64,000 nt of DNA from Thermodesulfobacteriota bacterium (lineage in GTDB: Bacteria > Desulfobacterota > Desulfarculia > JACQYL01), in the NCBI GenBank assembly GCA_963675595.2, contig CAXXLZ010000002.1:3104001-3168000 (forward strand), read 5' to 3'. The position numbers were made by a program, and so were the translations under genes. Positions 9,262-57,727 of this stretch are shown here, piece after piece (positions within the stretch are counted from its first letter, which is position 1; every line of letters begins with the position of its first letter). The notes beneath the pieces are model-generated. The model did not search any database, was not told where the DNA came from, and worked only from the letters and a program-made list of their open reading frames with translations.

Positions 9262-9283
9262 GCCACAGCACAAGGGTGATGCA

Positions 9284-15002: not shown

Positions 15003-15629
15003 ATGCGTGTGCCTGCAACCCAATTTCTCGATGCTCTGCTGTCCGTTGACCGTGTGAGGGCAAGACAAGTTTTGTCGGATTTGGAAAGCCACATTACACC
15101 ATTGGAACAAATAGATGGAATTATCGTGCCTTCACTGGATCGCTTGGGGCTGATGTGGGAAAAGGGCACGGCGGCGCTATCTCAAGTATATATGGCGGGA
15201 CGGATTTGCGAGGAACTGGTGGAGGAAATGCTGCCCCCCATGAGCCCGGACCGAAAAAGCCGGCCCAGAATGGCTGTCTCGGTATTGCACGACCATCATG
15301 GTTTGGGAAAACGGATCGTCTATTCCCTTGTCCGCGCCGGTGGATATGAGATTCTGGACTATGGACGAAGAACCGTGGATGAGCTTATTGAAATGATTGA
15401 AAGAGATCACATCGAAATTCTTCTTGTGTCGGTCCTGATGCTCCCGTCCGCCTTGAAGATCAGGGAGTTGAAACAACGCCTTGCCCGGAACCTGTCTTCA
15501 CAAACGCTCATTGTGGTTGGGGGTGCGCCTTTCAGGCTCGATCCCGATTTGGCTGCGGAGGTGGGTGCGGATGCAGTGGGTCGAGACGCATCCGACATCA
15601 TGGAGATCGCCCGGAAATTGGCCGACTAA
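15003..15629 (+). CDS. Cobalamin (B12)-binding domain protein (corrinoid protein: cap helices + Rossmann domain)
   Basis: His-on motif DxHxxG (DHHGLG), then SVLM and VGGAP. The N-terminal B12-binding_2-like cap reads LDRLGLMWEKG...LSQVYMAG. ATG 15003 follows AGGAG. Confidence 0.9.
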   Translation: MRVPATQFLDALLSVDRVRARQVLSDLESHITPLEQIDGIIVPSLDRLGLMWEKGTAALSQVYMAGRICEELVEEMLPPMSPDRKSRPRMAVSVLHDHHGLGKRIVYSLVRAGGYEILDYGRRTVDELIEMIERDHIEILLVSVLMLPSALKIRELKQRLARNLSSQTLIVVGGAPFRLDPDLAAEVGADAVGRDASDIMEIARKLAD

Positions 15630-15649
15630 TCAGCGAGGACCGTATTGAG

Positions 15650-38300: not shown

Positions 38301-39053
38301 ACGGGTAGGGTCGTCATCGAAACCAAGAATATTGCCTTGGAGGAGGCCCAATGCCCCGAACGGAACGGCTTCCTGCCCGGCGAATATGTCCTGTTGAGTG
38401 TGAGCGACAACGGCTGCGGCATGGACCGGCAGACCCTGGCCCATTTGTTCGAACCGTTTTTCACCACCAAAGGGATCGGCCAAGGCACGGGCCTGGGATT
38501 GGCTACGATTTACGGTATCGTCAAACAGAACGGAGGATACATCGACGTAGAAAGCGAGCCGGGCAGAGGAACAACATTTTCCATTTACTTTCCGAGAAAC
38601 ATATCTCAGGCGGATACCCCCGCCGATGTAAAAACCGGAAGTCCGGCCGAGCGCGGCCACGAAACCATTCTGCTGGTGGAGGACGAAGCAGCCATGCTGA
38701 ACATGGCGAAAACCATGCTGGAAAGGCTGGGATATCGTGTTTTGCCCTGCAGAACGGCCGTCGAAGCGGAGCGATTGGCGATGGAACACGCCGGCGAAAT
38801 CGATTTGCTCATAACCGATGTGATCATGCCGGATATGAACGGCAAGGAACTCGCCGAACGGCTCACGTCTCGTTACCCGAACATGAGCAGCCTTTTTACA
38901 TCCGGCTACACGGCGGATGTCATCGGTCATCATGGAGTGCTTAAGGAAGGCGTACACTTCATACCGAAGCCGTTCTCGAGAAAGGACTTGGCATGCAAGA
39001 TACGTGACGCTCTTTCGACGCTCCCCTCTTCTTCTCGTCGACAAAACGATTGA
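35397..39053 (+). CDS. Hybrid histidine kinase with N-terminal PocR-like ligand-binding domain and multiple PAS
   Basis: The N-terminus WQDICQKFHR...CIKSD...YRCPHGLVD.ASPIIIDG.H.GNFFTGQFF is typical of PocR; AGGVAHDFNN; REC. Confidence 0.93.
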   Translation: MMKFRLQDLIGIDHFQNLQDRLNKIYSFPSSIIDNEGNILTATAWQDICQKFHRKNKECERECIKSDQYILDHLHEASPAVSYRCPHGLVDNASPIIIDGVHYGNFFTGQFFLEEPDLSFFRTQAKKYGFPEEAYLEAVKKVPIWTREQLNNYLFFIKGLISVIIESALKTLKEKESLKQIQKREHRYRSILKAAMDGYWRTDVNGRILEVNEAYCKMSGYCEDELLTMSIADFEYFETPKLVTEHMQKVVSTSYDRFESKHRRKDGTTFDVEVSIQYRPEEDGQCVCFLRDITDRKQAQEAVRKQRDHAQRILNTVQAIIVALNREGRVTLINPKGCRLLGYSEDEILGRHWFSEFLPQPDGMEDVYPFFLRLVADEIEAAEYFENPIVTRKGEFRQIAWHNALMYDENGTLIGVLSAGEDITERKRAEKKQKKLEAQLSDAMNIADLGHWDYNVENDLFKFNDQFYRLFRTTAEQAGGYLMSSAEYAKRFVHPEDRDLVGEEIRKSVETSDPNFNSRLEHRIIYTDGEVGYISVRYFIVKDDHGKTVKTYGVNQDITERKRAFDEIKKANERMQLAADAAHFGIWDFDIKENRLEWDDWMFRLYGMSRDDFSGAYEAWQAGVHPDDLERSSKEVEQALRGEKEFDTEFRIVRPDGTIRHLIAHAVVSRDLDGTPLHMTGVNYDITQRVEAEAALRESENRFRTIFDHAAVGVVQVDSRSGRFVKFNQKFRDITGFSDEELSALRFQDITHPEDVASDTANLTRLVAGDIRTYALEKRYIRKDHSVVWVRVTVSPTWAAGEEPGSHITIVEDITERKSVEEVRDRLQAQLVQAQKMESVGRLAGGVAHDFNNMLGVILGSAEMALDETSPADPQYADLKEIHKAAKRSSDLTRQLLAFARKQTISPKVLDLNGTVEGMLKMLRRLIGEDIVLSWLPGSRLWRIKMDPSQVDQILANLCVNARDAVSGTGRVVIETKNIALEEAQCPERNGFLPGEYVLLSVSDNGCGMDRQTLAHLFEPFFTTKGIGQGTGLGLATIYGIVKQNGGYIDVESEPGRGTTFSIYFPRNISQADTPADVKTGSPAERGHETILLVEDEAAMLNMAKTMLERLGYRVLPCRTAVEAERLAMEHAGEIDLLITDVIMPDMNGKELAERLTSRYPNMSSLFTSGYTADVIGHHGVLKEGVHFIPKPFSRKDLACKIRDALSTLPSSSRRQND

Positions 39054-42777: not shown

Positions 42778-43580
42778 CGGTTGTCTTCCGACGAAAACGC
42801 CCCGAAATTCGATGGGGGCACATCGGCCATAACCCTGAACTTCTCGGTGCCGAAGGCGCACAAACCTCTCTTTCTCGCATAACCATCAAAATTTACTATA
42901 TTAGCCCTTTTGAACTGTCAGAGCTGAGTTTGACCCCCTATCTTAATTTCGCGACCGTAAAAATCCGATGGCCGCTCCGGCTTATTTTTCGCCGTTTTCC
43001 AGAGAGTTACCCCCACTATCCCCCCTATCTCCTTTCTCCCCACAAAACGAACGGTCCACCTCCCTCACGCCAATATTCCCAGGCAAGGTTCATGAAGAAC
43101 TTCCTTTTTTCGGCATTACGGGATGCCATGGCCGCCTCACGCCGATGGAGCGCCCTTGCGAGGTTGAAATACCCCATGGAATCGATGCTATGACCGTTGG
43201 TGACGATAAGGAGATAGTCCTCTTCCTCAGGAGCAAGTCCGTCCGGCAAAAGTCCCCTTCCTTCGGCCGGGTCGGTCATGAGCTTCCTTTCCTTGAGGAA
43301 GGCCGCATTTCATTCGGCCTCCACCCGGTGGTGGGAACGTGTGCAACGTTCCTCACCACCCTATAGGGTGTACACTGCTTCACGCAGCCTGGCACTGAAA
43401 TCCTTGGCAACGTAAATGAATATTATGTCAAAGGTTCCAAAACCTTTTAAAAAGAAGTAATTGCCGATTCCCAGCTTAATACAAGCGTCTTCCAAGGGTG
43501 ATCTAACATTTAATTCTTGCCCCTGTAGGGAGCGGCTATGGAGGCGAAGGTCTTAACTGCGCTTTGTGAATAAATTCTCA

Positions 43581-43609
43581 TTGACCTCGTCTTGTATAGA
43601 CGTTAAGCT
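43581..43609 (+). promoter_or_regulatory. Putative sigma70 promoter for the riboswitch leader
   Basis: TTGACC-N17-TAAGCT immediately upstream of the cobalamin aptamer. Confidence 0.7.
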
Positions 43610-43614
43610 GCTCG

Positions 43615-43775
43615 ACAAATGTTGAAGGAGCCCTAACGGGCTGGACGGGGAAGACGGTGTGAATCCGTCACGGTCCCGCCGCTGTAAACGGGGACGAAAG
43701 CCGCAAGGAAGCCACCGATGATCGGGAAGGCGCGGCGAGTAGGCCGATCCGGAAGTCAGAAACCCGCCTTCAACC
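43615..43775 (+). ncRNA. Cobalamin (B12) riboswitch aptamer
   Basis: Conserved elements in order: GGGGAAGACGGTGTGAATCCGTCACGGTCCCGCCGCTGTAA ... GCCAC ... GGGAAGGC ... AAGTCAGAAACCCGCCTT. GTTGAAGG pairs with CCTTCAAC as P1. Lies upstream of a TonB receptor. Confidence 0.92.
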
Positions 43776-43829
43776 GAGAGATCCGTTTTGGCCTGCGCGT
43801 ACTACAGGCTCAGCGGTGCCACTCCTTTG

Positions 43830-43886
43830 ACAGGCTGTTGAAAAGCGCGATCCGAGGCATTGTGCCCCATCGTTTTTCCGGCCTGT
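43830..43886. mobile_element. Internally deleted, degenerate copy of the MITE at 46377
   Basis: acaggctgttgaaaagcgcgatccgaggcattgtgccccatc|gtttttccggcctgt aligns with both ends of the 46377 element. Confidence 0.55.
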
Positions 43887-43975
43887 ATCTGTGTCGGTCC
43901 TTTTTGTAACCGGGCCGTCAAGGATCATTGCGGCGGATCTGTCAGGGGTGGCCAAGTAAAATGGGTGCAGTCCCC

Positions 43976-44002
43976 CCGGCACGTATGTGCCGGTTTTTTT
44001 TT
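43976..44002 (+). terminator. Intrinsic terminator in the riboswitch leader (likely attenuator)
   Basis: CCGGCAC-GTAT-GTGCCGG hairpin followed by T9. Confidence 0.85.
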
Positions 44003-44243
44003 GCTTGAACAACGGGCACATACGAATCGCGGTGGCGGAAGACCGGGACGTCGCGTACGGCGAACCGGTGTTCCGCATCGATTCACTTCAAGTCGCCCGT
44101 GACGTTCATGTCGAAGCCGGAGGCGCAGCCCGGCGCTCCCCATGGTCCGGGCGAATCCTCTGTTGTCGCTGTGTTGTGGTTGAGGACGTTTGTCTTGAGT
44201 TGAACCGCCCATGAAGGGGGCACCCATGAAGGAGGAAAGCGCC

Positions 44244-46379
44244 GTGAGAAAGGGAATGCAGGGATTCATCAACCGGACGATGCTGCTCGCATCCATGCTG
44301 TTCATGTTGTTTGGACTTTCGCTCGCATCCGCCGTGTACGCGGAAGAAACCCGGGAGGAAGGCGTTTCGAAACACGTAACCTTGGCCCCGGTGGTGGTCT
44401 CGGCCACCAAGACCGAAGAAAACACCATGGAGGTGCCATTTTTCGCGACGGTGATCACCCGGGATGATTTTGAAAAGATGGGGGCCCAGACCATCGAGGA
44501 AGCGCTGCGCAGCGTGCCGGGCCTTCAAATCGGCACCCAGGGCAACGCCTATCCGCACATCGAGGTACGAGGTTTCCGAGACACCAAGGACCTGGCCGTG
44601 CTCATCGACGGCATCCCGTTCCGGCAGGTCAACGGGTCGGCGGACTTCACCATGCTGCCTTTGGGCATCGTGGAAAGGATCGAATTCATCAAAGGGCCCT
44701 CTTCGTCCATTTGGGGCCGAGGCGCCGTTGCCGGAGTGCTGAACATCGTCACGAAACCGGACGACGTGTCCAAACTGCAGGCCAAAGTGCAGGCCGGCGG
44801 CGGCAGTTTCGGTACGTTTCGCGGAGACGGACGCGGGATTCTGCCGTACGAAGACGGCTACCTCATGTTGAACGTGGGCGGGTCCATCAGCGACGGTTTC
44901 CAGGACGGCACGGACCGGGACGCCGGCAATGTGCTGCTGCAACTGTCCCACAACTTCACCCGCAAGTTCGGTGTGGAGGCTCAATATCTCTTTTCCAGCG
45001 TGAATGCGAATCGTGGTTCCATTATTCCTCTGATTGACGGGGAACCCGCATACGGAGTGGAGGTGGACGACAATTTCGGTATCGACGACGCGAAATATGA
45101 CGGTCAATATCATTCCCTCACCGTATCACCCAGGCTGGAACTGCTCCCCGGTCTGGTGCTGAAAGACAGCGCCTCCGTGACGCATTTCGACCGTTTCGCC
45201 ACCGGAGGCATCACCATTACCCCCACGACCAGGACCAAAGGGTGGTGGGAAACGGACTCTGCGCAGACAAGCGTACACAACGACCTGAATCTGACCTGGA
45301 ATCAGGCCTTCGGAGGATTCGACAACACGCTGCTCGTCGGCAACTATCTCGAATTCGGGGATGAGGAGCAGAAGAGTCCCAGCTATTCCGGCGCGCCCAC
45401 CTACGGTCCTCCGGACTGGCAAACCCCGCTCAGCAACGTGGACAATCCCGCCAAAGGAAACAAGGGCGCCACAACCCGGAGCGACTTCGACCAAACCATT
45501 GTGAGCTTCTATATCCAGGACCGCATCGAATACGGTCCCCTGTCGTTGTTGGCCGGTGTGCGATATGATCATTTCGACGAAGAGCTGCGCCGGTCCAACC
45601 AGGACGTTGTTGCGGAACAGTCCGACAGCGCCTGGAGCCCCCGCTTCGCGGCGGACTGGAACTTCTATCGCGGGGAAAAGACCCAACTGGCCCTCTTTGC
45701 CAACTATGCCGAAGGCTTTCGGACCCAGTTCCCTTCTTTGAGCACGAAAAACGGCGTGACGTTACCGAACCTGCTGGATCCCGAAGAAACCGAAAGCTAT
45801 GAAGGTGGCTTGAAGGTAACGGCCCTGGACGGAAACCTCTTCGGCCAGATCGGGGTCTTCAGAACCGAAAAGAAAGGACCGCGCTCCTTCCGCACCAGTG
45901 AGGACGATTTTCTCTTCACCAACGCCCGCACTCGGGTGGACGGCGTGGAAACCGAAGTTCGTTATCGCTTCAATGAGATGTTCAATCTTTGGGCGCATTA
46001 CGCCTATCACGACGCGCACTATCTCGAATTCAAGGATTCCAGCGGAAACTCCTTCGAGGGTTACCGGGTCCGTATGTCGCCTCGGCATATCGCCGGCGCG
46101 GGTGCGAATTTCTTCTACCAGGGGTTCAACTGGAACGTGTCCTGGAACTACACGGGAAACCGGAACCTGCGTGACAATACGGTGGACGAGCCTCAAAACC
46201 TGCCGTCGTACAACGTGGTCAATACGGCCATCGGGTATACGTTCCTCAAGTACGAGATTCAGTTCGTGGTCAACAACCTCTTCGACGAGTACTACATTTC
46301 CGACGATTTCTCGTCCCAGGAGGCGGGCTGCGCCGGAGCTCCCCTGAACTTCTTCGTTTGGCTGAAAGCCGAATTCTAG
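44244..46379 (+). CDS. TonB-dependent receptor (cobalamin-riboswitch regulated; BtuB-like role likely)
   Basis: Signal peptide, TonB-box/plug (VVVSATKTE, ALRSVPGL, IEVRG, VLIDG, IERIEFIKGP-like, GAVAGVLNIVTK), NLFDEYY, terminal Phe (WLKAEF). GTG 44244 has an AGGAGG RBS (ORF track start 44211). Confidence 0.95.
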   Translation: MRKGMQGFINRTMLLASMLFMLFGLSLASAVYAEETREEGVSKHVTLAPVVVSATKTEENTMEVPFFATVITRDDFEKMGAQTIEEALRSVPGLQIGTQGNAYPHIEVRGFRDTKDLAVLIDGIPFRQVNGSADFTMLPLGIVERIEFIKGPSSSIWGRGAVAGVLNIVTKPDDVSKLQAKVQAGGGSFGTFRGDGRGILPYEDGYLMLNVGGSISDGFQDGTDRDAGNVLLQLSHNFTRKFGVEAQYLFSSVNANRGSIIPLIDGEPAYGVEVDDNFGIDDAKYDGQYHSLTVSPRLELLPGLVLKDSASVTHFDRFATGGITITPTTRTKGWWETDSAQTSVHNDLNLTWNQAFGGFDNTLLVGNYLEFGDEEQKSPSYSGAPTYGPPDWQTPLSNVDNPAKGNKGATTRSDFDQTIVSFYIQDRIEYGPLSLLAGVRYDHFDEELRRSNQDVVAEQSDSAWSPRFAADWNFYRGEKTQLALFANYAEGFRTQFPSLSTKNGVTLPNLLDPEETESYEGGLKVTALDGNLFGQIGVFRTEKKGPRSFRTSEDDFLFTNARTRVDGVETEVRYRFNEMFNLWAHYAYHDAHYLEFKDSSGNSFEGYRVRMSPRHIAGAGANFFYQGFNWNVSWNYTGNRNLRDNTVDEPQNLPSYNVVNTAIGYTFLKYEIQFVVNNLFDEYYISDDFSSQEAGCAGAPLNFFVWLKAEF

Positions 46380-46497
46380 ACTGGTGAAAAACGCGATCTG
46401 CGGCGTTGCGCTTCATCCCTCGTCACTGCGGCGTACTTCTATGTACGCCTTCCTCGGGATTCGCGTGCCTTGCATGTCATCGTTTTTCACCAGTCTA
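46377..46497. mobile_element. ~121-bp MITE with perfect 17-bp terminal inverted repeats
   Basis: TAGACTGGTGAAAAACG (46377-46393) and CGTTTTTCACCAGTCTA (46481-46497) are exact reverse complements; internal hairpin GGCGTAC...GTACGCC; no ORF. Confidence 0.8.
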
Positions 46498-46559
46498 TGG
46501 CAGCCGGCCTTTTTCAACGGTCTGTAAGCGTATCGTTTCAGAACTTCATTTCAATCCAA

Positions 46560-47205
46560 GGCCGCTCCGCCTGTGGCGGTGCGGCCCTGCTCAAAAGTTT
46601 GCGGGGGGTTCGGGGGGCGCTTTTTCCAAAAGCGCCCCCCGGTGATCCGATGCGGGGGTTTTGTCGTTGGGATTGTGTGGATTCAATGCTTGTAGGGGAA
46701 CGACAACGCTTCCCGAGCGGGGGCGTGAGGGCGCGCTTGGAGCAGAAAATCCGTATCCGATCCATCAGTAAAGCAGGATAATCTTTTGTGTAAGGTCTTT
46801 TCAGAGACGTTCCGCACCGGACCGGCCGCTCCGCCCGCGGCGGTGCGGCCCTGCCAAAAAGTCTTACGGGGGGTTCGGGGGGCGCTTTTTCCAAAAGCGC
46901 CCCCCGGTGATCCGATGCGGGGGTTTTGTCGTTGGGATTGTGCGGATTCAATGCTTGTAGGGGAACGACAACGCTTCCCGAGCGGGGGCGTGAGGGCGCG
47001 CTTGGAGCAGAAAATCCGTACCCGATCCATCAGTAAAGCAGGACAATCTTTTGTGTAAGGTCTTTTCAGAGACGTTCCGCACCGGACCGGCCGCTCCGCC
47101 CGCGGCGGTGCGGCCCTGCTCAAGAGTTTTACGGGGGGTTCGGGGGGCGCTTTTTCCAAAAGCGCCCCCCGGTGATCCCACGGAAGGATATTGTCGTTGG
47201 GATTG
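46560..47205. repeat. Tandem ~265-bp repeat (~2.4 copies) carrying a REP-like hairpin GGGGGGCGCTTTTTCCAAAAGCGCCCCCC
   Basis: The unit start gccgctccgcc recurs at 46561, 46825 and 47090, and the copies are near-identical. Confidence 0.93.
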
Positions 47206-47254
47206 CACGCGTGCACCGAAACAACGCGGCTTTCCGGGCGCGCTCCTTCTTTGG

Positions 47255-48469
47255 ATGGTCGTGCTGTGCGCCTTGGCTGCGACGTGGGGATGCCGACCGG
47301 CGCCCAAGGATGATGTGGAACTGACCTGGGCCGTGAATCAGCACGAAACCCGTTCGGACGCCGTGACTCAGTTTGAACGGGAGAACCCGGGCATCCACGT
47401 CCGTATCCGACCCATCAGCGATCCCAGGCAGCTCTTTTTGCAGAGCCTTTTCGGCGACGCTCCGGACGTGATCACTTTTTTTCAGGCGGATTTCTTTCAG
47501 AACTTCGCCGTGAACGGACTGCTGCGGCCCTTGGACTCGAAGGATTACGAGCCCTGGCCGTTCTATGCCGGGTTGAAGGACTACTGCTTCCGGCGGAAGG
47601 ATGGAGCCCTCATGGCGCTGCCCCAGGTGGCCTATCCGTATGTGCTTTATTTCAATCCGGATTGGGTTTCTCGAGAAAAGGCCGCGACGGTCCACACCTG
47701 GGAGGACCTCGGACTCTTGGCAGGCTCCGTAGATCCAGGGCGAAACAGCGCGGGAAAGAAGGTCTTCGGCCTGGACATCCAGAGCGACGCCATCTGGTTC
47801 CTCACCTGGTATCTTCAGAGAGGAGGCCGGTTGTTTCGGGAGGACGGGGAAAAACCGGCTTTGGACCGACGCAAGGCGGTGGCGACCCTGGAGGCCATGC
47901 AACAATGGCGGTCCGTTCCGGGGTTGGTTCCCGAGCCCGGCGATCGGCTGAATCTGCCCTCCAAGGGGTCGAGTCAAGGCGTTTTGGGCAGCCTGTTCTT
48001 GCAGGGGCGAGCGGTTTTCTACTGGTCGGGCAGCTGGAAAATCTACGACTTCGTCCATCAGAACCGGGTGCGTTGGGGTGTTCTTCCTCTGCCCGCCGGT
48101 CCGGCCAACGATTTGACCATCCTGGGGTGCAACTCCTTTGGAGTGTGCTCCCGATCCGCCCATCCCAAGGAGGCGGAACGGTTCGTTCGTTATCTGTCCG
48201 GCCTGAAGGGACAGGAGCGCCACGCGCGGCATTCGATTTTCATGCCCGCCAATCCCGCGTGCCCCGTTCCCGGTGAATACTCGGTATTGAAGGATCAGAT
48301 CGGCCGAGCCCGGACGTTGGAATACGGCTCCGGGTTCAACGAAGCTCGGATGAAACACGCCGTGGAACAGATGCTGGAAGCCCACCGGCTGGGGTTCGTG
48401 GGGGCCGAAGCGTCCATTGATCGACTGATGCGGGTTCTTTCGCAGGAATCTACAGGTCCGCGGCCATGA
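47255..48469 (+). CDS. ABC transporter solute-binding protein (family 1, carbohydrate/CUT1-type), probable lipoprotein; start uncertain
   Basis: Hydrophobic leader ending TWGC; FERENPGIHVR, GDAPDV, YVLYFN, FLQGRAVF..SGSW, WGVLPLP, HPKEAERFVRYL. Confidence 0.85.
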   Translation: MVVLCALAATWGCRPAPKDDVELTWAVNQHETRSDAVTQFERENPGIHVRIRPISDPRQLFLQSLFGDAPDVITFFQADFFQNFAVNGLLRPLDSKDYEPWPFYAGLKDYCFRRKDGALMALPQVAYPYVLYFNPDWVSREKAATVHTWEDLGLLAGSVDPGRNSAGKKVFGLDIQSDAIWFLTWYLQRGGRLFREDGEKPALDRRKAVATLEAMQQWRSVPGLVPEPGDRLNLPSKGSSQGVLGSLFLQGRAVFYWSGSWKIYDFVHQNRVRWGVLPLPAGPANDLTILGCNSFGVCSRSAHPKEAERFVRYLSGLKGQERHARHSIFMPANPACPVPGEYSVLKDQIGRARTLEYGSGFNEARMKHAVEQMLEAHRLGFVGAEASIDRLMRVLSQESTGPRP

Positions 48470-49350
48470 AGGCATTTCACGATCAACGAGGAATGCTGTA
48501 CGTACTCCCTCTGTTGACGGGAGTGGTTCTGTTTACCGTGGTTCCGGGCGTCATGGCCGTTTACCTGTCCTTTTGCCGGTGGAGCTTCACCACGTCCCCC
48601 GAATTCATCGGCTTGTGGAATTATCGAAAGCTGCTGGGTTTGGGCGGTACCGCCCCGGACCCGCTCTTTGTGCAGGCCCTCGTCAACACGCTGATCATTG
48701 CGTCCATGGTTCCTTTGCAGGTGGCGGGAAGCTTTCTGCTGGCCGTTTTTCTGCAGCATCGGAATCCGTGGGGGCAATTCCTACGCCTCATCGTGTTCCT
48801 TCCCACCCTGGTGAGCCCCGTGGCGCTGTTCATTCTTTGGCGATGGATTTTCAATGCGGATTTCGGGTTGATTTCCCTGGCCCTCGGCAAGGCGGGGCTC
48901 GCGGGACCGGCCTGGTTGGAGGACCCGACTTGGTCCAAGCCGGCCGTGATGCTGGTCCTGCTCTGGGAATCGGTGGGGAGTTTTCAAATGCTGTTCTTCC
49001 TGGCGGCCCTGCGGCAGATTCCCGGACAATTGCACGAAATGGCTCGATTGGACGGTCTGGGTTTTTTTCATAAGGCCCGGGCCGTGTACTTTCCCTGGCT
49101 CAAGAAAGCGGCCCTGTTCAACGGATGCCTCGGGTTGCTGGGGGCCCTGCAGGGCGGTTTCGAAATCACCTATATCATGACCGGCGGAGGACCCGTGGGC
49201 TCCACCACCACCCTGTCCTTGTACCTGTTTCAGAATGCCTTTGAATGGGAACGGGTGGGATATGCGTCGGCCGTGGGCGTCGCCATGTTGGCGCTCGTCT
49301 CGCCTCTGCTCCTGGCGGCCGGGCTGCTGCGCGGAAAGCGTCCGCAGTGA
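48466..49350 (+). CDS. Carbohydrate ABC permease (MalF/UgpA-like)
   Basis: FIGLWNY, WRWIFN..FG, WLEDP, EAA-like LHEMARLDG, YIMTGGGP..STTTLSLY; ATGA overlap. Confidence 0.93.
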   Translation: MKAFHDQRGMLYVLPLLTGVVLFTVVPGVMAVYLSFCRWSFTTSPEFIGLWNYRKLLGLGGTAPDPLFVQALVNTLIIASMVPLQVAGSFLLAVFLQHRNPWGQFLRLIVFLPTLVSPVALFILWRWIFNADFGLISLALGKAGLAGPAWLEDPTWSKPAVMLVLLWESVGSFQMLFFLAALRQIPGQLHEMARLDGLGFFHKARAVYFPWLKKAALFNGCLGLLGALQGGFEITYIMTGGGPVGSTTTLSLYLFQNAFEWERVGYASAVGVAMLALVSPLLLAAGLLRGKRPQ

Positions 49351-50333
49351 CCCTGGAAATCGGAAATCGCATGGATCGAAACCCCATCCAAGAGGTCGTA
49401 AACGGAAAGACATTCCGTTCAGGCCCCATGGCACGGCGAGTCCTCGTCGCGAGCGTGGGTCTGCTCATCGTGATAGTCTATGTGGCTCCCTTTCTGTGGA
49501 TGCTGTCCACCTCTCTCAAGACCAATGAGGCCCTGTTCGACGATTCGGGATTCCTGAGCCGTTTTCTGCCGCAACCGTTCCAATGGAACAACTACGGCGA
49601 ACTCTTTTCGCAGATTCCCTTCGCCCGATACCTGGTCAACAGCCTGGTCGTGGCGGCGTGCGGCGCAATGCTGGAAACCGCCGTGTCCACACTGGCCGCT
49701 TTCGGGCTGAGCAGGGTGCGATGGAAGGGCGGCGGGCCGGTGTACGGCATGATCTACCTTTCCTGGTTGATTCCCTTCTCCGTCATCATGATTCCCAGGT
49801 TCCTGATGTTCGCCTATCTCCCTCAATGGCTGTGGCCGTCGGAATTCTGGAACGCCTCACGGGTGATTCCCCTGGCCGGGGTGGAAATCGAAATCGGCCG
49901 CCTCGCCGGCCTGGACTCCTTCGCAACTCTCATCCTGCCGGCAAGCGTGTCCGTGGGAGCCGCTTTTCTGCTCATGACCGCCATGAGCCGTGTGCCCGTA
50001 CCCTTGCTCGAATCCGCCTACCTCGAATCCGGTTCCGTGTGGCGGGTCTTCCGGGATATCGTGGTTCCCTTGGTGAAACCCACCATCATCACCGTGGCCT
50101 TTATCGCCTTTTTGTCCTCCTGGCAGAGCTTCACCTGGCCTCTCCTGGTCACTTCGAGCCTGGAAATGCAGACCGCTCCCATCGGCTTGAGAGCCTTTCA
50201 GGCCCTGCATTCCACCCAATGGTCCCTATTGATGGCGGGAAGCGTGATCCTGACCCTGCCGTCCATCTTCCTGCTGTTTACGGCTCAACGCTACGTCATC
50301 GATCGATATGAACTGACGGACCTGGATGATTGA
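49347..50333 (+). CDS. Carbohydrate ABC permease (MalG/UgpE-like)
   Basis: PFLWMLSTSLKT, WNNY, YLVNS, degenerate EAA (LLESAYLESG), FTWPLLV, MAGS; GTG overlaps the upstream TGA. Confidence 0.92.
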   Translation: MTLEIGNRMDRNPIQEVVNGKTFRSGPMARRVLVASVGLLIVIVYVAPFLWMLSTSLKTNEALFDDSGFLSRFLPQPFQWNNYGELFSQIPFARYLVNSLVVAACGAMLETAVSTLAAFGLSRVRWKGGGPVYGMIYLSWLIPFSVIMIPRFLMFAYLPQWLWPSEFWNASRVIPLAGVEIEIGRLAGLDSFATLILPASVSVGAAFLLMTAMSRVPVPLLESAYLESGSVWRVFRDIVVPLVKPTIITVAFIAFLSSWQSFTWPLLVTSSLEMQTAPIGLRAFQALHSTQWSLLMAGSVILTLPSIFLLFTAQRYVIDRYELTDLDD

Positions 50334-50866
50334 GTGGGGGGCGCTTTTGGAAAAGCGCCCCCCACGCCCCCCGTAAAACGTTCAAGAGTGGACGCACCGC
50401 CTGGGGCGGAGCGTCTCGTACCCCCACAATGGTGCTTCTTCGCCCGTTTGGGAGAAGTAAGAGCCGTTGGAAGTTAGCAAGGCAGCCGATTCCTCCCTCA
50501 GGCTCTCCGCCGAAGGCGGCGAAGCGGCGCTCAAGGGTTTTGCAGGGGGTCCGGGGGATGCTTTTCCAAAAGCATCCCCTGGAATGATGAATGGTCGGTT
50601 TATGATGGTGGGGGGCGCTTTTGGAAAAGCACCCCCCACGCCCCCCGTAAAACGTTCAAGAGTGGACGCAGCGCCTGGGGCGGAGCGTCTCGTACTCCCA
50701 GAATTAAACGTCTTAGCCCATTTGGGAGATGTATGGAACGTTGGAAATTAGCAAGGCAGCCTATTTCTCCCTCAGGCTCTCCGCCGGAGGCGGTGAGGCG
50801 GCGTTCAAAGGTTTTGCAGGGGGTCCGGGGGATGCTTTTCCAAAAGCATCCCCCGGAAATGAAATG
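50334..50866. repeat. Two ~274-bp BIME-like units, each bounded by inverted REP-like elements
   Basis: Units start at 50334 and 50608. The left element GGGGGGCGCTTTTGGAAAAGCGCCCCCC and the right element GGGGGATGCTTTTCCAAAAGCATCCCC face each other. Same family as 46560-47205. Confidence 0.92.
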
Positions 50867-50938
50867 AATAAAAAATTCTTCTCTATGCTTTCTTCAAGCC
50901 CGGCAACGGTTGTTGCGGCGGGAAATTTGGATGATGGT

Positions 50939-52063
50939 ATGAACGGTCTCAGACTGGCGGATGTTTCGAAGATATATGGAAGCGGGAAAGAGGGAGGTGT
51001 GGTTGCGGTCCGGGGATTGAGCCTGGACGTGAACCGGGGGGAGTCCCTGGTGATTTTGGGGCCGTCGGGTTGCGGCAAGACCACCATGTTGCGCTTGATT
51101 GCGGGGTTGGAGCAGTTGACCGGAGGAGATATTTTGCTGCACGGTCGTTCCCTGACGAATGTGCCTCCCCATCGGCGTCCCCTGGCTTTGGTGTTCCAGA
51201 ACCATGCGGTGTACCCTCACATGACGGCGGAGCGGAACCTGACCTATGCCCTGCGGGTGCGTAGATTCGACGCGGGAACCATCCGTAGACGACTGGAAGA
51301 GACGGCCGGCCTGCTGCGGATCAGTGGTGAGGAACTCCGGCGCAGACCGTCGGAACTGTCCGGAGGCCAGAAGCAGCGGGTGGCTTTGGGGCGGGCTCTC
51401 ATGCTTCGCCCCGAACTGCTGCTGCTGGACGAGCCCTTTTCCCAGTTGGACCAGCAACTGCGGGTGGAACTCCGGTCTGAACTGCGCTCCATACGCAAAG
51501 CCGTGGATTCCACCCTGGTGGTGGTGACTCACGATCAGGCGGACGCCGCGGCTTTAGGGGATCGCATCGCGTTGATGAATCATGGGCGGATCGAACAGGT
51601 CGGCACGGCGCGGGATTTGTACCGCCGTCCGGACAACCTGTTTGTGGCCAAGTTCATGTCTCCGCCTCCCATGAACCTGATTCGGGGGGTGATCGAGCAA
51701 CGGGAAGACCATTTGTTTTTTCGAGAGGAGGTCTCGGGGGTCGTGTCTTTCCAGCTTACGCCTGAGCAGCAAAGGAGCCTGGAAGCGCACGGCGGCCGAC
51801 ACGTCATTGCGGGGGTCAGGCCCGACGGGATTTCTTTGAAAGCGTACTCGGATTCGGAGGGAACGACTTTGCGGGGTTGCGCAAAGATCACGGCGGTGGA
51901 AGATACCGGCGCGGCCGTTTGGGTGACGCTGAACACCGGGACTCACCCCATGCGTTGCGAGGCGTCTCCGGAAGATTGCGTCGCCGTGGGAGATCGCGCG
52001 GCGCTCATGATCGACGCGTCGGAAGCGGTGTTCTTCGATCCGGTGAGTGAACAAAGGATGTAA
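50939..52063 (+). CDS. ABC ATP-binding protein (MalK/UgpC-like, with TOBE-type C-terminus)
   Basis: Walker A GPSGCGKT, LSGGQKQRVALGRAL, LLLDEP, VTHDQ, PDNLFVAKF...PMN. Confidence 0.95.
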   Translation: MNGLRLADVSKIYGSGKEGGVVAVRGLSLDVNRGESLVILGPSGCGKTTMLRLIAGLEQLTGGDILLHGRSLTNVPPHRRPLALVFQNHAVYPHMTAERNLTYALRVRRFDAGTIRRRLEETAGLLRISGEELRRRPSELSGGQKQRVALGRALMLRPELLLLDEPFSQLDQQLRVELRSELRSIRKAVDSTLVVVTHDQADAAALGDRIALMNHGRIEQVGTARDLYRRPDNLFVAKFMSPPPMNLIRGVIEQREDHLFFREEVSGVVSFQLTPEQQRSLEAHGGRHVIAGVRPDGISLKAYSDSEGTTLRGCAKITAVEDTGAAVWVTLNTGTHPMRCEASPEDCVAVGDRAALMIDASEAVFFDPVSEQRM

Positions 52064-52529
52064 GCATTCACGGGGTGGACTCGTCTATTGTAGGGGCAGG
52101 CCATAGTGCCTGCCCAAAAGTCGGCCGAAGGCCCACCATCTCTCCTGTGCCCCCGTGCCGGCGTCCCTCTGCGGCATACCCCGTGAATAGGTGCCAAAGA
52201 ATTTCGGTGTGAACAGGTTCCTTCCCGGAATGCCCGTATTGCCCATGGTCGGGCGGGACCTGCGATCGGCCCGTTAGACGCGTCCGCGGTCCGTCCCGAG
52301 TCCCCCTCCCATTCTTTCAACGCTTGGTTTCTTTCCGGAGTGCGCCAACCTTACAGTACACGGAAATTCCATATGCGCCGAAAGCGCCCACTTCTCCAAA
52401 TGCGACTCACGGGCTTTATGTAAGGGGCGGGAGTGACGATACACTTATGGTGTCGTCCTTTTTATTGAGTGAAGACCTTTCCGCTTCGAGGCAGTTACCT
52501 CTTAATATGAGAGGGAAGGTACGTGGGGA

Positions 52530-54680
52530 GTGATGGAAATGAAGCATGGAGTCGATAACTTGGCTTGCGGTGAAGAACTTGGAACAAACGAGTCGTGTTC
52601 GGGGAGGAGGGCCGTGGTCGCGAGAGGTGCAAAAGGGAATCGATGGTTCGTGTGGGCGGCTCTTTCCCTAATGTGCGCATGGTCGGTGCTCCTACCCTTG
52701 CAACCCTCCGCTTCGCATGCCGGGAATTCGGCCGGAACGGCTCATCTCTATCAGTTTGACGGTTTCATGGCGCGCGAAGCGCCCGAGAATGATCTTTCCC
52801 GCGCGGTAATCTTCTACAGTCCGTCCGAAAGCGGCCGTTTGAACGAACCTGTTCGGCTCAGCGGCGACATTGGAGCGAAATTCAATGGACATTCCATGTT
52901 TCTACGGAGGGAGGAGAGCCGGCCGGAGGCCTTGTCCGCTTCGGCGTCCCCGGTAGGCGGGTACTCTGCCCATACGCCGGGCGAATCCTCGCCCCCGGGC
53001 TTTGAGCGGGAAGAAACCATCAAATGGGAGTGGCCTTCCGTTTTCGCGAATTTCGACGAAGTGCCTCCCACGGCCGCCGAAGCGGACCCCGCGGACGGCG
53101 GCGGCCTGCTCTACACCACCGCTTCGTCCCACCCGGACGGCGCGTATCCCATGACAACCAACGACTGGGCCGGGTGGCGCGACACGGCGTCCTACCCCGC
53201 TCCCGATGAAGACGTTCGCAATTATTTTTACCTGTATCTCAATTCCTACAATTCATCTCACATGGGATTCTCAACCTACGGGTACCTGGAAATCGACGGC
53301 GAGACCGCCGTTCGTGGTAACAGCCTGAGATACCGCGTCACCGGGGGTATCAACAGTGGCGGGAACTGCGGTACGCCCATCACCACCAAACGGCAATATC
53401 TCGACCTCCTGCAAGCGGGTGAGCATCCGGTATGTGAAGGAGCCGTTATCGGACATCCTTGTCTGTATTTCGCCAACACCGGCCCTAGCTGGAGCCCGGT
53501 GCCTTTTCCACAGGCCCAAGGGGCCAATCGACTGAGCATGTACTATCGCGCCCCGGCCGAATTGACCAACGGCGAGGGGGGATGGGGAAATCGGCCGGAA
53601 ATCACCATGAATGTCGGACCCTATAATGGTGTGGGGGGCCACTGGTACCACGAAGTGTGCAACCAGGGCGGCGGTTGGACGCATGTTCTGATCGACGCCC
53701 ATCCGCAGCACAACAACTCCTGGTCCAGTGCCGCGGACTACCCCTTTCCGAGTTCCAGCCTGCGGGATATGGGAGTCGATTACTTCAATGGTTGGTATCG
53801 ATGGTATGTGACTTTCAAACCCTATGAAGGAATCGCCGCCGCACCCTATGATGTGTGGTTCGACGAAGTGGAGTTCCTTACCGATCCGGAACCTCAAAAT
53901 AATGAAACCGTTTGTTCGCCGGCGGTCACCTGGTTTCCGGAGACGCGGTCCTTCGAGATCGGGTTCATGGACAAATACAAGAACAACGCCTACGCCTACG
54001 CCACCTACGAACTGCGCTACTCGTTCGAACCCATCACCAACGACGATTGGGACCAGGCCACACCGGCCCGCATTCTAGCCGACGAACGATTTTCCATCGG
54101 AGCCCGAGACGACGGCAAGTTCGCCAAGTACTGGCCGTATTACGCGTCGGTCTGGGCGCCCTTTACCCTGGCCTGTGAAGAGGACCTGGATCGGTTGACC
54201 CCGGACACGTTGATCTTCTTCGCCGTCAAAGACATTTCACAGGTGGGAGAAAACGGGATGCAACCCGTTCAGGACACGGGTATCGGTCGGTGGGTCGTGG
54301 GCGGACGCGATTATTCGGCTTACGGCGACACCTTCGACTATGAGGGAGATCAACCGGCACTGCCTTTGATCAAGCGCATCGATTTCCGCGTTCCAAAAGA
54401 ACCCGGCCGCGGCTCGATACGAGTCACCATCCTTCCTTCGGAGGCGGCACAGGCCGGCGCCGGATGGCGCTTGGTCGGGGAGAGCGTTTGGCGCGCCGGC
54501 GGCGACATGGAAACCGACCTGCAGGCCGGTGCTTATACGGTGGAATTCAAGGACGTGGGCGGCTGGAGAAGCCCGGCGAATCTGACGGTGACCGTAACGG
54601 CCGATCAAACCTCACAGCCGTCGGTAACGTATCTACGGGACGCAACCACGGGACTGCTCCTGCTTCTGTTGCCGGATTGA
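52530..54680 (+). CDS. Secreted/surface hypothetical protein with aromatic-rich core, C-terminal Ig/PEGA-like domain and hydrophobic tail
   Basis: 716-aa ORF with host-like codon usage; signal peptide ...SASHA; C-terminal GSIRVTI.P..A..AGA.WR...YTVEFK.V.GW..P....VTV domain; ends GLLLLLLPD. Confidence 0.8.
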   Translation: MMEMKHGVDNLACGEELGTNESCSGRRAVVARGAKGNRWFVWAALSLMCAWSVLLPLQPSASHAGNSAGTAHLYQFDGFMAREAPENDLSRAVIFYSPSESGRLNEPVRLSGDIGAKFNGHSMFLRREESRPEALSASASPVGGYSAHTPGESSPPGFEREETIKWEWPSVFANFDEVPPTAAEADPADGGGLLYTTASSHPDGAYPMTTNDWAGWRDTASYPAPDEDVRNYFYLYLNSYNSSHMGFSTYGYLEIDGETAVRGNSLRYRVTGGINSGGNCGTPITTKRQYLDLLQAGEHPVCEGAVIGHPCLYFANTGPSWSPVPFPQAQGANRLSMYYRAPAELTNGEGGWGNRPEITMNVGPYNGVGGHWYHEVCNQGGGWTHVLIDAHPQHNNSWSSAADYPFPSSSLRDMGVDYFNGWYRWYVTFKPYEGIAAAPYDVWFDEVEFLTDPEPQNNETVCSPAVTWFPETRSFEIGFMDKYKNNAYAYATYELRYSFEPITNDDWDQATPARILADERFSIGARDDGKFAKYWPYYASVWAPFTLACEEDLDRLTPDTLIFFAVKDISQVGENGMQPVQDTGIGRWVVGGRDYSAYGDTFDYEGDQPALPLIKRIDFRVPKEPGRGSIRVTILPSEAAQAGAGWRLVGESVWRAGGDMETDLQAGAYTVEFKDVGGWRSPANLTVTVTADQTSQPSVTYLRDATTGLLLLLLPD

Positions 54681-54995: not shown

Positions 54996-56270
54996 TCAGG
55001 GCGCAACCCTCAGGCTCAGGTCTCCGTTCGGCCAGTAGAAGATCGAAGGAGACGCCTTCACCGCAAAAACCCTGAAGGACAGGTCGTCATCCTGGTGGCT
55101 GATCTTGGGACGCAGCGTCAGCTTGAGGGGTTTGGTTTTCGGGACCTGTACGATGAAGCCGGGCGCGACTTGATACGAATTTCTCGCCACGTCCGCGGGT
55201 TCGCTGTAGAAGGGCCACCACAAGTAATTCGGTTCTTTGAACGAAATATTCCATTCCGCCCGGTTGGAGGCGTAGCTGCTGTTGTCCCGAATGACCACGT
55301 CGGGCGTGGAGTAGCTCTCCGAATAGCCGGCGTTGCCCCCCACGGCGTTCGTGCCGAGGGACGCGCCGATGCTGAATCCCTTGGTGGTGTTTCCCACGGT
55401 GCCGGTGGGCATATATTCGTAGAGCGCGGCGCCGTCGGTGGTGTCCACCGTGGCTTTGAGGTTCATGGCGTACGTATACCAGCCGCATCGCCCACTGGTG
55501 GACTTGTAGTCGTTGATCTCCGATTGGTAGCTGGTGGTCGCCAGAAACCAGTTCTTGGTCGCATTCGTGGTGTTCAGTTTGAACACGTTGATCAGAAACC
55601 GGTAGGAGCCGCCGTGCATGGTTCCTCTCCAGTCCTGGGTATAGGTGGCGTCCCAGGCGCCCGAGTCGGCCTGCGAGGCGAGGGCGTGTTTTTCCAGGAC
55701 TTCGGCGATCCAGTCGGTGAGCAGATCCAGCAGCGTCCCCACCGTGGGGTTTTCATCGAGGCCCAGGTAAAGGTCCTCCCGGTCGCCGTCCGGAACCCCG
55801 TACATGAAGTAGGCGTAATTTTCCGGATCGCTCGTCTCACCATGATCACCGGGATCGAAGGCATTTAGCGCTTCACGGAGTGCGGCGTCCCCTCCGATCA
55901 GTCCGAAGAACTCCCCCGCCCGGGCTCGGGAAGTGAACAGGGCCAGGGTTTCCGAGTCGAAGGAGTTGAGAACCTCGGCGCTCTTGAACAGAAAGACGTT
56001 GATGAAGGCGGACGAGTCCGGTCCTTGGGCGTCGGTATAAACCTCGGTGGGGTCCGTCTGCTCGTCGCTGAGGGCGGCGGCGAGCTGCTCTCCCGAATAG
56101 GCTTCGAGCCGGTCGTGACTTTGTACGATGATGAGTTGGACCTGAAGCGGCTCGATTTCGGATGCCTCCGGCGTTTCATGGCCGGTGCCGCACCAGGCGC
56201 CTTGGGCGAATCCGACAATCAAGACACAACACATCAAGGCTGTGATTTTTCTCCCGAAAAATAGGTTCAA
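54996..56270 (-). CDS. Secreted protein, paralog A; C-terminal leukocidin/hemolysin-like beta-pore-forming motif (putative)
   Basis: TTG 56270 after AAGGAGAGG gives 424 aa, the same length as paralog B; signal peptide; YEYMPTGTVGNTTKGFSIGASLG...YSESYSTPDVVIRD...AEWNISF. Confidence 0.75.
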   Translation of the reverse strand: MNLFFGRKITALMCCVLIVGFAQGAWCGTGHETPEASEIEPLQVQLIIVQSHDRLEAYSGEQLAAALSDEQTDPTEVYTDAQGPDSSAFINVFLFKSAEVLNSFDSETLALFTSRARAGEFFGLIGGDAALREALNAFDPGDHGETSDPENYAYFMYGVPDGDREDLYLGLDENPTVGTLLDLLTDWIAEVLEKHALASQADSGAWDATYTQDWRGTMHGGSYRFLINVFKLNTTNATKNWFLATTSYQSEINDYKSTSGRCGWYTYAMNLKATVDTTDGAALYEYMPTGTVGNTTKGFSIGASLGTNAVGGNAGYSESYSTPDVVIRDNSSYASNRAEWNISFKEPNYLWWPFYSEPADVARNSYQVAPGFIVQVPKTKPLKLTLRPKISHQDDDLSFRVFAVKASPSIFYWPNGDLSLRVAP

Positions 56271-56452
56271 GGTTCCTCTCCTTTGCCGGCGGTTGTTGTA
56301 GATAGAAACCTTCAGAAAAAACCCTTGTCTCCGCTTGCGGGAACGGGCGATCCTTCCCGCGTCTCCGTGCACTCAGCGGTGATGCGACCGGCGAAAGCCG
56401 GGATGTTCGTGGTGCTGCAAATGAAACCCATTTGTTCCCATCGGTGTCGGAC

Positions 56453-57727
56453 TCAGGGCGCAACCCTCAGGCTCAGGTCTCCGTTGGGCCAGTAAGTGGT
56501 CCAAGGAGACACCTTCAACACAACAACCCTGAAGGACAGGTCGTCGTCCCGGTGACTGATCTTGGGGCGCAGCTTCAGCTTGAGCGGTTTGGTCTTCGGG
56601 ACCTGTACGATGAAACTGGGCGCGACTTGATACGAATTTCTCGCCACGTCCGCGGGTTCGCCGTAGAAGGGCCACCACAAGTAATTCGGTTCCTTGAACG
56701 AAATATTCCATTCCGCCCGGTTGGAGGCGTAGCTGCTGTTGTCCCGAATGACCGCGTCGGGCGTGGTGTAGCTTTCCGAATACTCGGCGCTGCCTCCCAC
56801 GGAATCGGTGCCCAGGGAACCCCCGATACTGAATCCTTTGGTGGTGTCTCCCACGGTGCCGGTGGGCATGTAGTCATAGAGCAAGGCGCCGTCGGTGGTG
56901 TCCACCGTGGCTTTGAGGTTCATGGCGTTCGTATACCAGCCGCATCGCCCGCTGTTGGACCTGTAGTCGTCGATCTCCGATTGGTAGCTGGTGGTCACCA
57001 GAAACCAGTTCTTGGTCGGATTCGTGGTGTTCAGTTTGAACACGTTGACCAGAAACCGGTAGGAGCCGCCGTCCATGGTTCCTCTCCAGTCCTGGGTATA
57101 GGTGGCGTCCCAGGCGCCCGAGTCGGCTTGTGAGGCAAAGGCGTGTTTTTCCAGGACCTCGGCGATCCAGTCGGTGAGCAGATCCAGGAGCGACCCCACT
57201 GTGGGGTTTTCATCCAGGCCCAGGTAAAGGTCCTCCCGGTCGCCGTCCGGAACTCCGTACATGAAGTAGGCGTAATTCTCCGGATCGCTCGTCTCACCTT
57301 TATCACCCGGATCGAAGGCGTCCAGCGCCTGCCTCAGCGCCGCGTCCCCGCCGATGAGTCCGAAAAACTCCCCCGCCTGCGCCCGGGAAGCGAACAAAGC
57401 CAGGGTTTCCGAGTCGAAAGAATTGAGAACGTCTACGCTCTTGAACAGAAAGACGTTGATGAAAGCGGACGAGTCCGGTCCTTGGGCGTCGGAATAGATC
57501 TCGGTGGGGTCCGTCTGCTCGTTGTTGAGGGCGGCGGCGAGCTGCTCTCCCGAATAGGCTTCGAACCGATCCTGACTTTGTACGATGATGAGTTGGACGT
57601 GAAGCGGCTCGATTTCGGTCGCCTCCGGCGTTTCATGGCCGATGCCGCCCCAGGCGCCTTGGGCGAATCCGACAAACAATACACAGCACATCAAGGCTGT
57701 GATTTTTCTCAGAAAGAATGAGTACAC
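56453..57727 (-). CDS. Secreted protein, paralog B; C-terminal leukocidin/hemolysin-like beta-pore-forming motif (putative)
   Basis: 424 aa, GTG after AAGGAGAGG, highly similar to paralog A over its full length. Confidence 0.75.
   Translation of the reverse strand: MYSFFLRKITALMCCVLFVGFAQGAWGGIGHETPEATEIEPLHVQLIIVQSQDRFEAYSGEQLAAALNNEQTDPTEIYSDAQGPDSSAFINVFLFKSVDVLNSFDSETLALFASRAQAGEFFGLIGGDAALRQALDAFDPGDKGETSDPENYAYFMYGVPDGDREDLYLGLDENPTVGSLLDLLTDWIAEVLEKHAFASQADSGAWDATYTQDWRGTMDGGSYRFLVNVFKLNTTNPTKNWFLVTTSYQSEIDDYRSNSGRCGWYTNAMNLKATVDTTDGALLYDYMPTGTVGDTTKGFSIGGSLGTDSVGGSAEYSESYTTPDAVIRDNSSYASNRAEWNISFKEPNYLWWPFYGEPADVARNSYQVAPSFIVQVPKTKPLKLKLRPKISHRDDDLSFRVVVLKVSPWTTYWPNGDLSLRVAP

Follow-up and report, generated by a model that had tools for sequence, protein, structure and literature searches.

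To our knowledge, the characterised importers of vitamin B12 (cobalamin) that depend on a binding protein are all type II ATP-binding cassette (ABC) systems. TonB-dependent receptors that supply a type I ABC importer through a family-1 binding protein are known from the alginate system of Sphingomonas A1 and from the maltodextrin receptor MalA of Caulobacter, both of which have sugar-responsive protein regulators and neighbouring lyases or hydrolases. Here we analyse a five-gene cassette in a 64,000-nt stretch of DNA (the window) from a Thermodesulfobacteriota bacterium (assembly GCA_963675595.2, contig CAXXLZ010000002.1, positions 3,104,001 to 3,168,000), in which a cobalamin riboswitch is followed by a TonB-dependent receptor and an ABC transporter of the carbohydrate uptake transporter 1 (CUT1) type. 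Judged from its sequence, the cassette appears to be a B12-regulated receptor and ABC uptake system with a different transporter class. We propose, at about an even chance of being right, that it imports a corrinoid (cobamide, cobinamide or cobyric acid) by a non-canonical route, as a second system beside one of the BtuFCD type.

The cassette shares with BtuB–BtuFCD a riboswitch, a TonB receptor, a periplasmic binding protein and an ABC importer. It differs from that system in that its receptor falls far under the BtuB cut-offs, its binding protein belongs to SBP_bac_1/8 and not to Peripla_BP_2, and its permeases are BPD_transp_1 (type I) and not FecCD (type II) proteins. In domain set and gene order the ABC half is like MalEFGK2, UgpBAEC and CymEFGD. 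Unlike those CUT1 systems, however, it has a binder that is 16–20% identical to any solved binder and makes a family of its own, comes with a TonB receptor of its own and, within Desulfobacterota, with a B12 riboswitch, and has no sugar-catabolic genes conserved nearby. The alginate and MalA systems differ again, since the cassette has a cofactor riboswitch and no lyase or hydrolase enzymes. Within the full-text literature that we searched, which excludes most subscription journals, we found no paper that places a sugar-type ABC system in a B12 regulon or under a cobalamin riboswitch. Two gene sets may be a precedent, namely RoseRS_3100-3102 of Roseiflexus and Pjdr2_2686-2688 of Paenibacillus, which are given as 'B12 & precursor transporters' behind cobalamin riboswitches and carry no btu name (Sun et al. 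2013, PMC3766115). They are riboswitch-led like the cassette, but the accessible part of that paper lists no TonB receptor with them and does not state their protein families.

The regulatory evidence lies in the leader. Its full-length aptamer, the sole Rfam match within the window, scores well over the RF00174 gathering score of 31.5 bits (Table 1), and an intrinsic terminator hairpin stands 190 nt 3′ of it, the top terminator-like site in 43200-52600. Five leaders (the window and the related loci L013, L014, L018 and L021) align through a TTGAC word, the aptamer, a conserved linker motif and the terminator. The hairpin and its T run are kept in all five, with compensatory changes at four stem pairs (alignment columns 468-471 with 483-486, as judged by RNAalifold). 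Members of RF00174 with a terminator platform are OFF switches, and the terminator found here would give this riboswitch the same direction. The original prediction had read from the letters alone a promoter, a B12 aptamer, a terminator, a TonB receptor and a co-oriented set of family-1 binding protein, MalF/MalG-like permeases and MalK-like ATPase. The RF00174 match and the conserved 7-bp stem with its T9 tract upheld the aptamer and the terminator, and Pfam domains agreed for the receptor and for all the ABC proteins. The promoter fared less well: the TTGAC word at 43581 is aligned in all four leaders that reach that far (the window and three relatives), but a consensus scan called no + strand promoter around it.

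Table 1. Features of the cassette and its leader, in window coordinates.
Feature	Position	Strand	Details
Promoter-like region	43581..43609	+	TTGAC word at 43581; -10 weak
Cobalamin riboswitch aptamer	43609..43785	+	RF00174 87.9 bits, E 2.4e-20, model positions 1-189
Partial dispersed-repeat copy within leader	43830..43880	+	5 further genome sites match over 41-48 nt (81-85% identity)
Intrinsic terminator, riboswitch expression platform	43976..44002	+	7-bp GC-rich stem (43976-43993) + T9
TonB-dependent outer-membrane receptor, 711 aa	44244..46379	+	Plug 1.4e-24; TonB_dep_Rec_b-barrel 1e-42
115-bp dispersed element resembling a miniature inverted-repeat transposable element (MITE)	46380..46494		14-bp terminal inverted repeats; ~154 genome sites, 71-93% identity
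Tandem array, 2.4 x 265 bp	46560..47205		94% matches, score 1162
MalE-fold solute-binding lipoprotein	47255..48469	+	SBP_bac_8 1.8e-22, SBP_bac_1 4.5e-21; start uncertain (ATG 47255, GTG 47108, TTG 47051)
ABC permease 1, UgpA/MalF-type	48466..49350	+	BPD_transp_1; EAA-like loop; orthologues 50-65% identical
ABC permease 2, UgpE/MalG-type	49371..50333	+	BPD_transp_1; reading frame open from 49245; orthologues 42-61% identical
Second repeat block, 1.9 x 274 bp	50334..50858		90% matches; MITE-like family, ~128 genome sites
ABC ATPase, UgpC/MalK-type	50939..52063	+	ABC_tran, OB_MalK, TOBE; Walker A, LSGGQ; alternative start ATG 50864; reading frame open from 50729

Pattern scans returned six loci from genome contigs and nine from metagenome contigs, of which 12 are orthologous (L013-L024). 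The other three (L025, L026 and L027; 22-40% identity, E 8e-5 to 7e-9) were excluded from the counts as non-orthologous, and receptor adjacency is not assessable at L017 and L023, which begin inside the binding-protein gene. In 10 of the 11 assessable loci including the window, the gene immediately upstream of the binding-protein orthologue is a receptor orthologue (49-70% identity); as the L015 and L024 receptors are identical, this amounts to 9 of 10 distinct loci. At L022 an open reading frame (ORF) on the opposite strand takes its place. By ORF calls in nine relatives, the gap between receptor and binding protein is 2-36 nt in seven, the exceptions being L021 (98 nt) and L019 (166 nt), and because most of these gaps are so short the ancestral unit was probably one operon. 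Both permeases follow in all ten loci that extend that far and the ATPase in eight of ten, with other genes in its place in L013 and L021. On this gene order, the receptor and the CUT1-type ABC genes are one conserved unit. The genes flanking it are not conserved, and among the loci of ten relatives whose flanking ORFs were scanned there was neither a glycoside hydrolase nor a conserved sugar kinase beside the cassette.

The unit is also rare. The binding protein has 28 other homologues (E<=1e-10, 44-66% identity) in a search of 5.8 billion clusters, the named ones coming from metagenome-assembled genomes (MAGs) of Desulfobacterales. A profile search of 1.84 billion representatives returned three binding-protein representatives above 390 bits, the next standing at 142 in the generic sugar-binder continuum. 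Of 400 other genomes sampled across the phylum, one has the binding protein; of 94 others in the class, two have receptor orthologues, and both of these carry the cassette. The searched genomes held no further carriers beyond those of L014 and L018. Given that these whole-genome searches find few carriers, and the receptor only alongside the cassette, the receptor and binding-protein families are tiny and discrete, co-occur essentially always, and make up a single, patchily distributed unit. In some loci the cassette has as neighbours a phage-type integrase, the large subunit of a terminase, and DUF3150 with CobT-like/VWA genes (L015:14184-14837, L017:4256-5683, L015:2888-5759), a hint that mobile elements may carry it.

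DNA upstream of the receptor is available at eight loci, and RF00174 precedes the receptor in five of them: the window, L013, L014, L018 and L021. The search for homologous CUT1 cassettes behind B12 riboswitches elsewhere was thus answered by the last four. By group, the riboswitch is present at five of six Desulfobacterota loci (the exception being L020, from Desulfobacterales) and at neither of two Rhodospirillaceae loci; L022 gave no RF00174 match at E<=1. In the maximum-likelihood receptor tree the two Rhodospirillaceae sequences are the starred riboswitch-less clade and the seven Desulfobacterota sequences the other clade. The link between riboswitch and cassette is old, as it is kept down to 59% receptor identity. 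At the two riboswitch-less Rhodospirillaceae loci, AT-rich TGTTA...TAACA inverted repeats lie upstream of the receptor (approximately L015:7640-7670 and L016:7540-7570) and may be an operator for a protein regulator.

The receptor has the N-terminal plug and barrel domain of TonB-dependent transporters, along with a signal peptide, a TonB-box-like stretch and a C-terminal Phe. Its ORF is open from ATG 44211 (44211-46379), the likely start being GTG 44244 behind AAGGAGG. It scores below the cut-offs of every NCBIfam equivalog, including those of BtuB (TIGR01779 and NF007926), for which it reaches 109 and 109.5 bits where 599.7 and 836 are required, the match being confined to the plug. Its next-best non-orthologous relatives are remote (28-42% identity, ~95 bits), and in the phylum sample RF00174 lies directly upstream of four of these seven.

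The ABC half has the composition of a CUT1-type system, with a family-1 binding protein, two BPD_transp_1 permeases and a MalK/UgpC-type ATPase with OB/TOBE domains. EAA-like stretches are present in both permeases, and no cassette protein matched Peripla_BP_2 or FecCD. The ATPase scores 332.8 bits against the NCBIfam UgpC subfamily, under its cut-off of 432, and the permeases, whose best NCBIfam models are UgpA and UgpE, are likewise under cut-off. For the binding protein the nearest equivalogs are GanS at 43.9 bits (cut-off 700) and MalE at 17.6 (cut-off 291). A tblastn search of the genome (E<=1e-8) brought up no paralogue of the binding protein or of either permease; the genome has five further matches to SBP_bac_1. 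A search of the ESM Atlas with the binding protein returned generic family-1 binding-protein clusters only.

We took advantage of an AlphaFold2 model of the binding protein (predicted local distance difference test score, pLDDT, 86; predicted template modelling score 0.85) to look for structural relatives with Foldseek. The nearest are binders of maltodextrin, cycloalternan, acarbose, cyclodextrin and cycloisomalto-oligosaccharide (template modelling score 0.73-0.77, 16-20% identity). Because the nearest structures bind cyclodextrin, cycloalternan and similar compounds, a MalE fold of this kind can take bulky cyclic ligands of ~1 kDa; the permeases of such sugar systems also handle bulky cyclic ligands of about that mass. 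The most conserved stretch of the binding protein, with 13 of 19 residues invariant in an alignment of 27 sequences, comprises residues 235-253 (window ~47957-48013). Within it, residues 237-244 are the sole internal low-confidence loop of the model (pLDDT <50), which could be a ligand-ordered lid or docking loop.

Given a riboswitch of this kind, we considered the cassette within the B12 regulon of its genome (G000), which has 13 RF00174 matches. The twelve matches outside the cassette lead a Peripla_BP_2/FecCD/ABC set, a CobN-type chelatase, a cbi biosynthesis operon and CbiK; a cluster of the anaerobic benzimidazole type with ThiC-like, methyltransferase and B12-radical-SAM genes; and an ExbB-ExbD-TonB operon, another TonB receptor and a MacB/LolA-like ABC set. 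Other riboswitches of the genome control a BtuFCD-type set and the genes for making B12 de novo, which makes the cassette an extra system, an added member of a large B12 regulon and not a BtuFCD replacement. The original prediction had placed the CUT1 transporter 'instead of BtuFCD', which holds for the cassette itself, where the BtuFCD families are lacking, but not for the genome, where a Peripla_BP_2/FecCD/ABC set has its own riboswitch.

Two members of this regulon have features of their own. At G000:C2:1423847-1429500 (L034), the riboswitch is followed by an operon of DUF3450, ExbB, ExbB, ExbD, TonB and TPR genes, so that the energy-transducing complex for TonB receptors itself appears to be B12-regulated. 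In the riboswitch-led operon of the BtuFCD type, at G000:C2 ~3296180-3297340 (L028:3782-4942, +), a BtuF-like Peripla_BP_2 gene has an in-frame TGA at codon 279; homology runs past it, and an 8-bp hairpin with a GUUU loop begins 14 nt downstream. No Rfam model of the selenocysteine insertion sequence matched there and the fold z-score was not significant; the TGA either encodes selenocysteine or is a nonsense mutation.

The genome of L018 (G467) offers a different setting. This MAG, 87% complete, has only two riboswitches, one at the cassette and the other at a ThiC-like gene of the benzimidazole-synthase type. It gave no match for CbiD, CbiG_C, CbiC, FecCD or Peripla_BP_2, and CbiB and CobS are present. 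Such a gene content is suggestive of a corrinoid salvager, of which the cassette would be the only riboswitch-linked importer.

Taken with the lack of any context for sugar use (no genome paralogues of the binding protein or permeases, and no neighbouring glycoside hydrolase in the ten relatives' loci), these observations point to the following scheme. In the Desulfobacterota lineage, a single promoter would lead through an adenosylcobalamin-type riboswitch with its terminator into the whole cassette, transcribed as one. High cobamide would favour the terminator, and because the expression platform is an intrinsic terminator, transcription should then end before the receptor gene. Scarcity of cobamide would allow joint production of the receptor, the binding lipoprotein and the type I importer. 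The TonB receptor would pass the ligand to the periplasmic MalE-fold lipoprotein, and the lipoprotein would dock on the MalFGK2/UgpAEC-like type I importer, so that the ligand crosses both membranes. The original prediction of a new importer for cobamides or their nucleotide-loop precursors thus gains a conserved receptor–ABC unit and a riboswitch at five of six Desulfobacterota loci; it gives way in that the system adds to BtuFCD. Among the putative cargoes we rate a corrin-ring compound above nucleotide-loop precursors.

Several observations weigh against a corrinoid importer. The corrinoid ABC importers known to us are all type II, energy-coupling factor (ECF) or exporter-fold systems, and the sequence and fold relatives of the binding protein are sugar binders only. 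The best NCBIfam model for the receptor is the TonB-siderophor subfamily, at 206 bits against 109 for BtuB, and its best matches in the PDB are CntO, the metal-pseudopaline receptor, and FoxA/FhuA (E ~1e-24, mainly over the plug); by these scores the receptor is closer to models of siderophore, metallophore and haem receptors than to BtuB. No RF00174 match, even at E<=1, lies upstream of the receptor in L015, L016 or L020. All riboswitch loci fall in one receptor clade, and the link to the riboswitch may trace to a single ancestral acquisition, in which case the five riboswitch loci are not five independent events. BtuFCD-type and corrin-ring genes are also present in G000, G191, G482 and G483. 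As for G467, the MAG also lacks the cassette's own permease orthologue, so its gaps are real. To these we add a glycoside hydrolase family 13 (GH13) gene of the alpha-amylase family at 59534-60895 (-) (Alpha-amylase 1.4e-43), 7.5 kb downstream on the opposite strand, and the state of this genome's own copy, to which we turn first.

The original prediction had cautioned that ~870 bp of repeats separate the receptor from the binding protein. That spacer is real: it measures 875 bp (46380-47254) and holds the MITE-like element and the 2.4 x 265-bp array. The block at 50334-50858 had been absent from the earlier account and lies in a second spacer of 605 bp (50334-50938) between permease 2 and the ATPase. 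Each 265-bp unit consists of an 80-bp two-hairpin dispersed module (~31 genome sites) and 185 bp found at this locus only; the second-block element (roughly 150-250 bp) holds inverted copies of the 80-bp module, and the repeat piece in the leader belongs to the 115-bp family and sits inside ~85 nt that are absent from all four orthologous leaders. Three dispersed repeat families have all landed within this single operon. Because the same junctions are tight in relatives (2-36 nt in seven of nine between receptor and binding protein, ~8-25 nt between permease 2 and ATPase), the spacer repeats are taken as lineage-specific secondary insertions and not native intergenic DNA.

The insertion stops exactly at the expected start of the binding-protein signal peptide. 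In frame, the leader of the binding protein has the charged stretch, hydrophobic core and lipobox of its orthologues, with ACG at the expected start codon. Translation from ATG 47255 would give a 13-residue leader without the charged N-region, and from GTG 47108 or TTG 47051 a repeat-encoded extension of 49-68 residues. By this comparison the binding-protein gene has lost its canonical start codon before the signal peptide in this genome. The repeats and the missing start may impair the ABC part here; the receptor would clearly be riboswitch-controlled, but expression of the ABC half in this genome is uncertain.

It is accordingly possible, if on balance doubtful, that the receptor alone is still a working riboswitch target here and that the ABC half is uncoupled or decaying, a situation compatible with any substrate. 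Repeats of three families in the leader and in both spacers, an ACG in place of a start codon whose alternatives truncate the leader or extend it with repeat-encoded sequence, and a weak terminator-like site at 46463-46477 all speak for such decay. On the other hand, none of the five ORFs is broken, each aligning with its orthologues over the full length, a simple scan found neither a sigma-70-like + strand promoter nor a strong terminator in either spacer (46380-47254 and 50334-50938), and intergenic repeats inside operons are often tolerated.

The other alternatives concern the cargo. In one of them, an importer of a chelate of cobalt or another metal, the receptor would admit a cobalt-metallophore complex and the ABC system would move it, or the freed chelate, inward, with the riboswitch coupling cobalt supply to B12 synthesis as it does for known cobalt transporters. 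This would account for the likeness of the receptor to CntO, FoxA/FhuA and the siderophore-receptor subfamily of NCBIfam. The survey cited above (Sun et al. 2013, PMC3766115) documents cobalamin riboswitches ahead of genes from 12 families of cobalt transporters. G000, moreover, makes B12 de novo, with a riboswitch-controlled CbiK. The binding protein, however, is of the MalE/CUT1 type and stays below the Pfam cut-offs of SBP_bac_11 (20.9 against 25) and SBP_bac_6 (19.4 against 24.6), models that we take to cover iron and molybdate binders. In addition, no Fur-box-like site was found upstream of the three riboswitch-less receptors, where the best candidate had 11 of 19 matches and 210-254 of 300 shuffled sequences did at least as well. 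G467 keeps the riboswitch-led cassette, and CbiD, CbiG and CbiC were not found in this 87% complete MAG; since it has no detected corrin-ring genes, cobalt for B12 would be pointless there. We consider metal uptake improbable.

A precursor of the nucleotide loop or lower ligand (alpha-ribazole, its phosphate, a benzimidazole riboside or a related glycoside) would also fit a system that the riboswitch places in the B12 regulon. A sugar-type binding protein would suit a riboside, and the permeases and ATPase score best against glycerol-3-phosphate Ugp models. Yet the nearest folds bind large oligosaccharides and not ligands of monosaccharide size, and a dedicated 711-aa TonB receptor would be unusual for a riboside of ~280 Da, even if receptors for small vitamins do exist. 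Both G000 and G467 should not need the base, since each has its own riboswitch-controlled ThiC-like genes for lower-ligand synthesis. There is thus, in our view, little likelihood that such precursors are the cargo.

Ordinary oligosaccharide uptake, with the riboswitch gained in one lineage, or uptake of a carbon source whose catabolism needs B12, would agree with the sugar-type family and fold assignments throughout the ABC half, with the GH13 gene, with the single clade of riboswitch loci and with the three of eight loci, including both from Rhodospirillaceae, that have no riboswitch. We think it unlikely in view of a riboswitch and terminator retained across receptor divergence to 59% identity, the lack of a conserved glycoside hydrolase or sugar kinase beside the cassette in ten relatives' loci, the drop in score from 567 to 142 bits that sets the binding-protein family apart from generic sugar binders, the riboswitches before four of the seven nearest non-orthologous receptor relatives, and an OFF switch that does not suit induction of a B12-dependent catabolism.

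We were also interested in the surroundings of the cassette in the window. The original prediction had put it next to a signalling island with a corrinoid protein; that protein exists (14907-15629, 240 aa, B12-binding and B12-binding_2), but 28 kb upstream of the cassette. With a gene of the URO-D family, methyltransferase-like, it occupies 14907-16693 (+) amid very large PAS/GAF hybrid histidine kinases, and the two look like a methyltransferase pair within the signalling island. Seven co-oriented hybrid sensor kinases of ~1000-1800 aa (PAS, GAF, dCache) run through 10416-42777 (+), of which the one at 35397-39053 bears an N-terminal PocR sensory domain, and a set of methyl-accepting chemotaxis protein, CheW and response-regulator genes lies upstream of the run at 4288-10219.

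Just downstream of the cassette, a 716-aa ORF at 52530-54680 (+) matches no Pfam or NCBIfam model. Beyond it are tandem paralogues at 54996-56372 (-) and 56453-57727 (-), of 458 and 424 aa and 84% identical, neither with a Pfam match and the first also without one in NCBIfam; a third copy, at 40% identity, lies elsewhere in the genome, and none occurs in the related loci. The 716-aa ORF and the ORF at 54996-56372 were considered as cassette members and rejected, as the related loci contain no homologue of either.

Anaerobic communities are shaped by the exchange of corrinoids, and which corrinoid an organism can salvage is set by its uptake routes. The cassette is small and self-contained and has repeat-free orthologues (for example at L016 and L020). 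Should its ligand be a sugar or a metal chelate, control by a cobalamin riboswitch would also be unusual. Should the proposal of a corrinoid cargo be true, the cassette would add a fourth architecture for B12 uptake beside the BtuFCD, ECF-CbrT and BacA/BtuM types, widen the substrate range of type I transporters to a bulky tetrapyrrole and provide a new metagenome marker of corrinoid salvage. More tentatively, corrin-ring compounds might then have in it their first type I (MalFGK2-like) ABC importer, one that is rare and spread horizontally in sulfate reducers and some Rhodospirillaceae.

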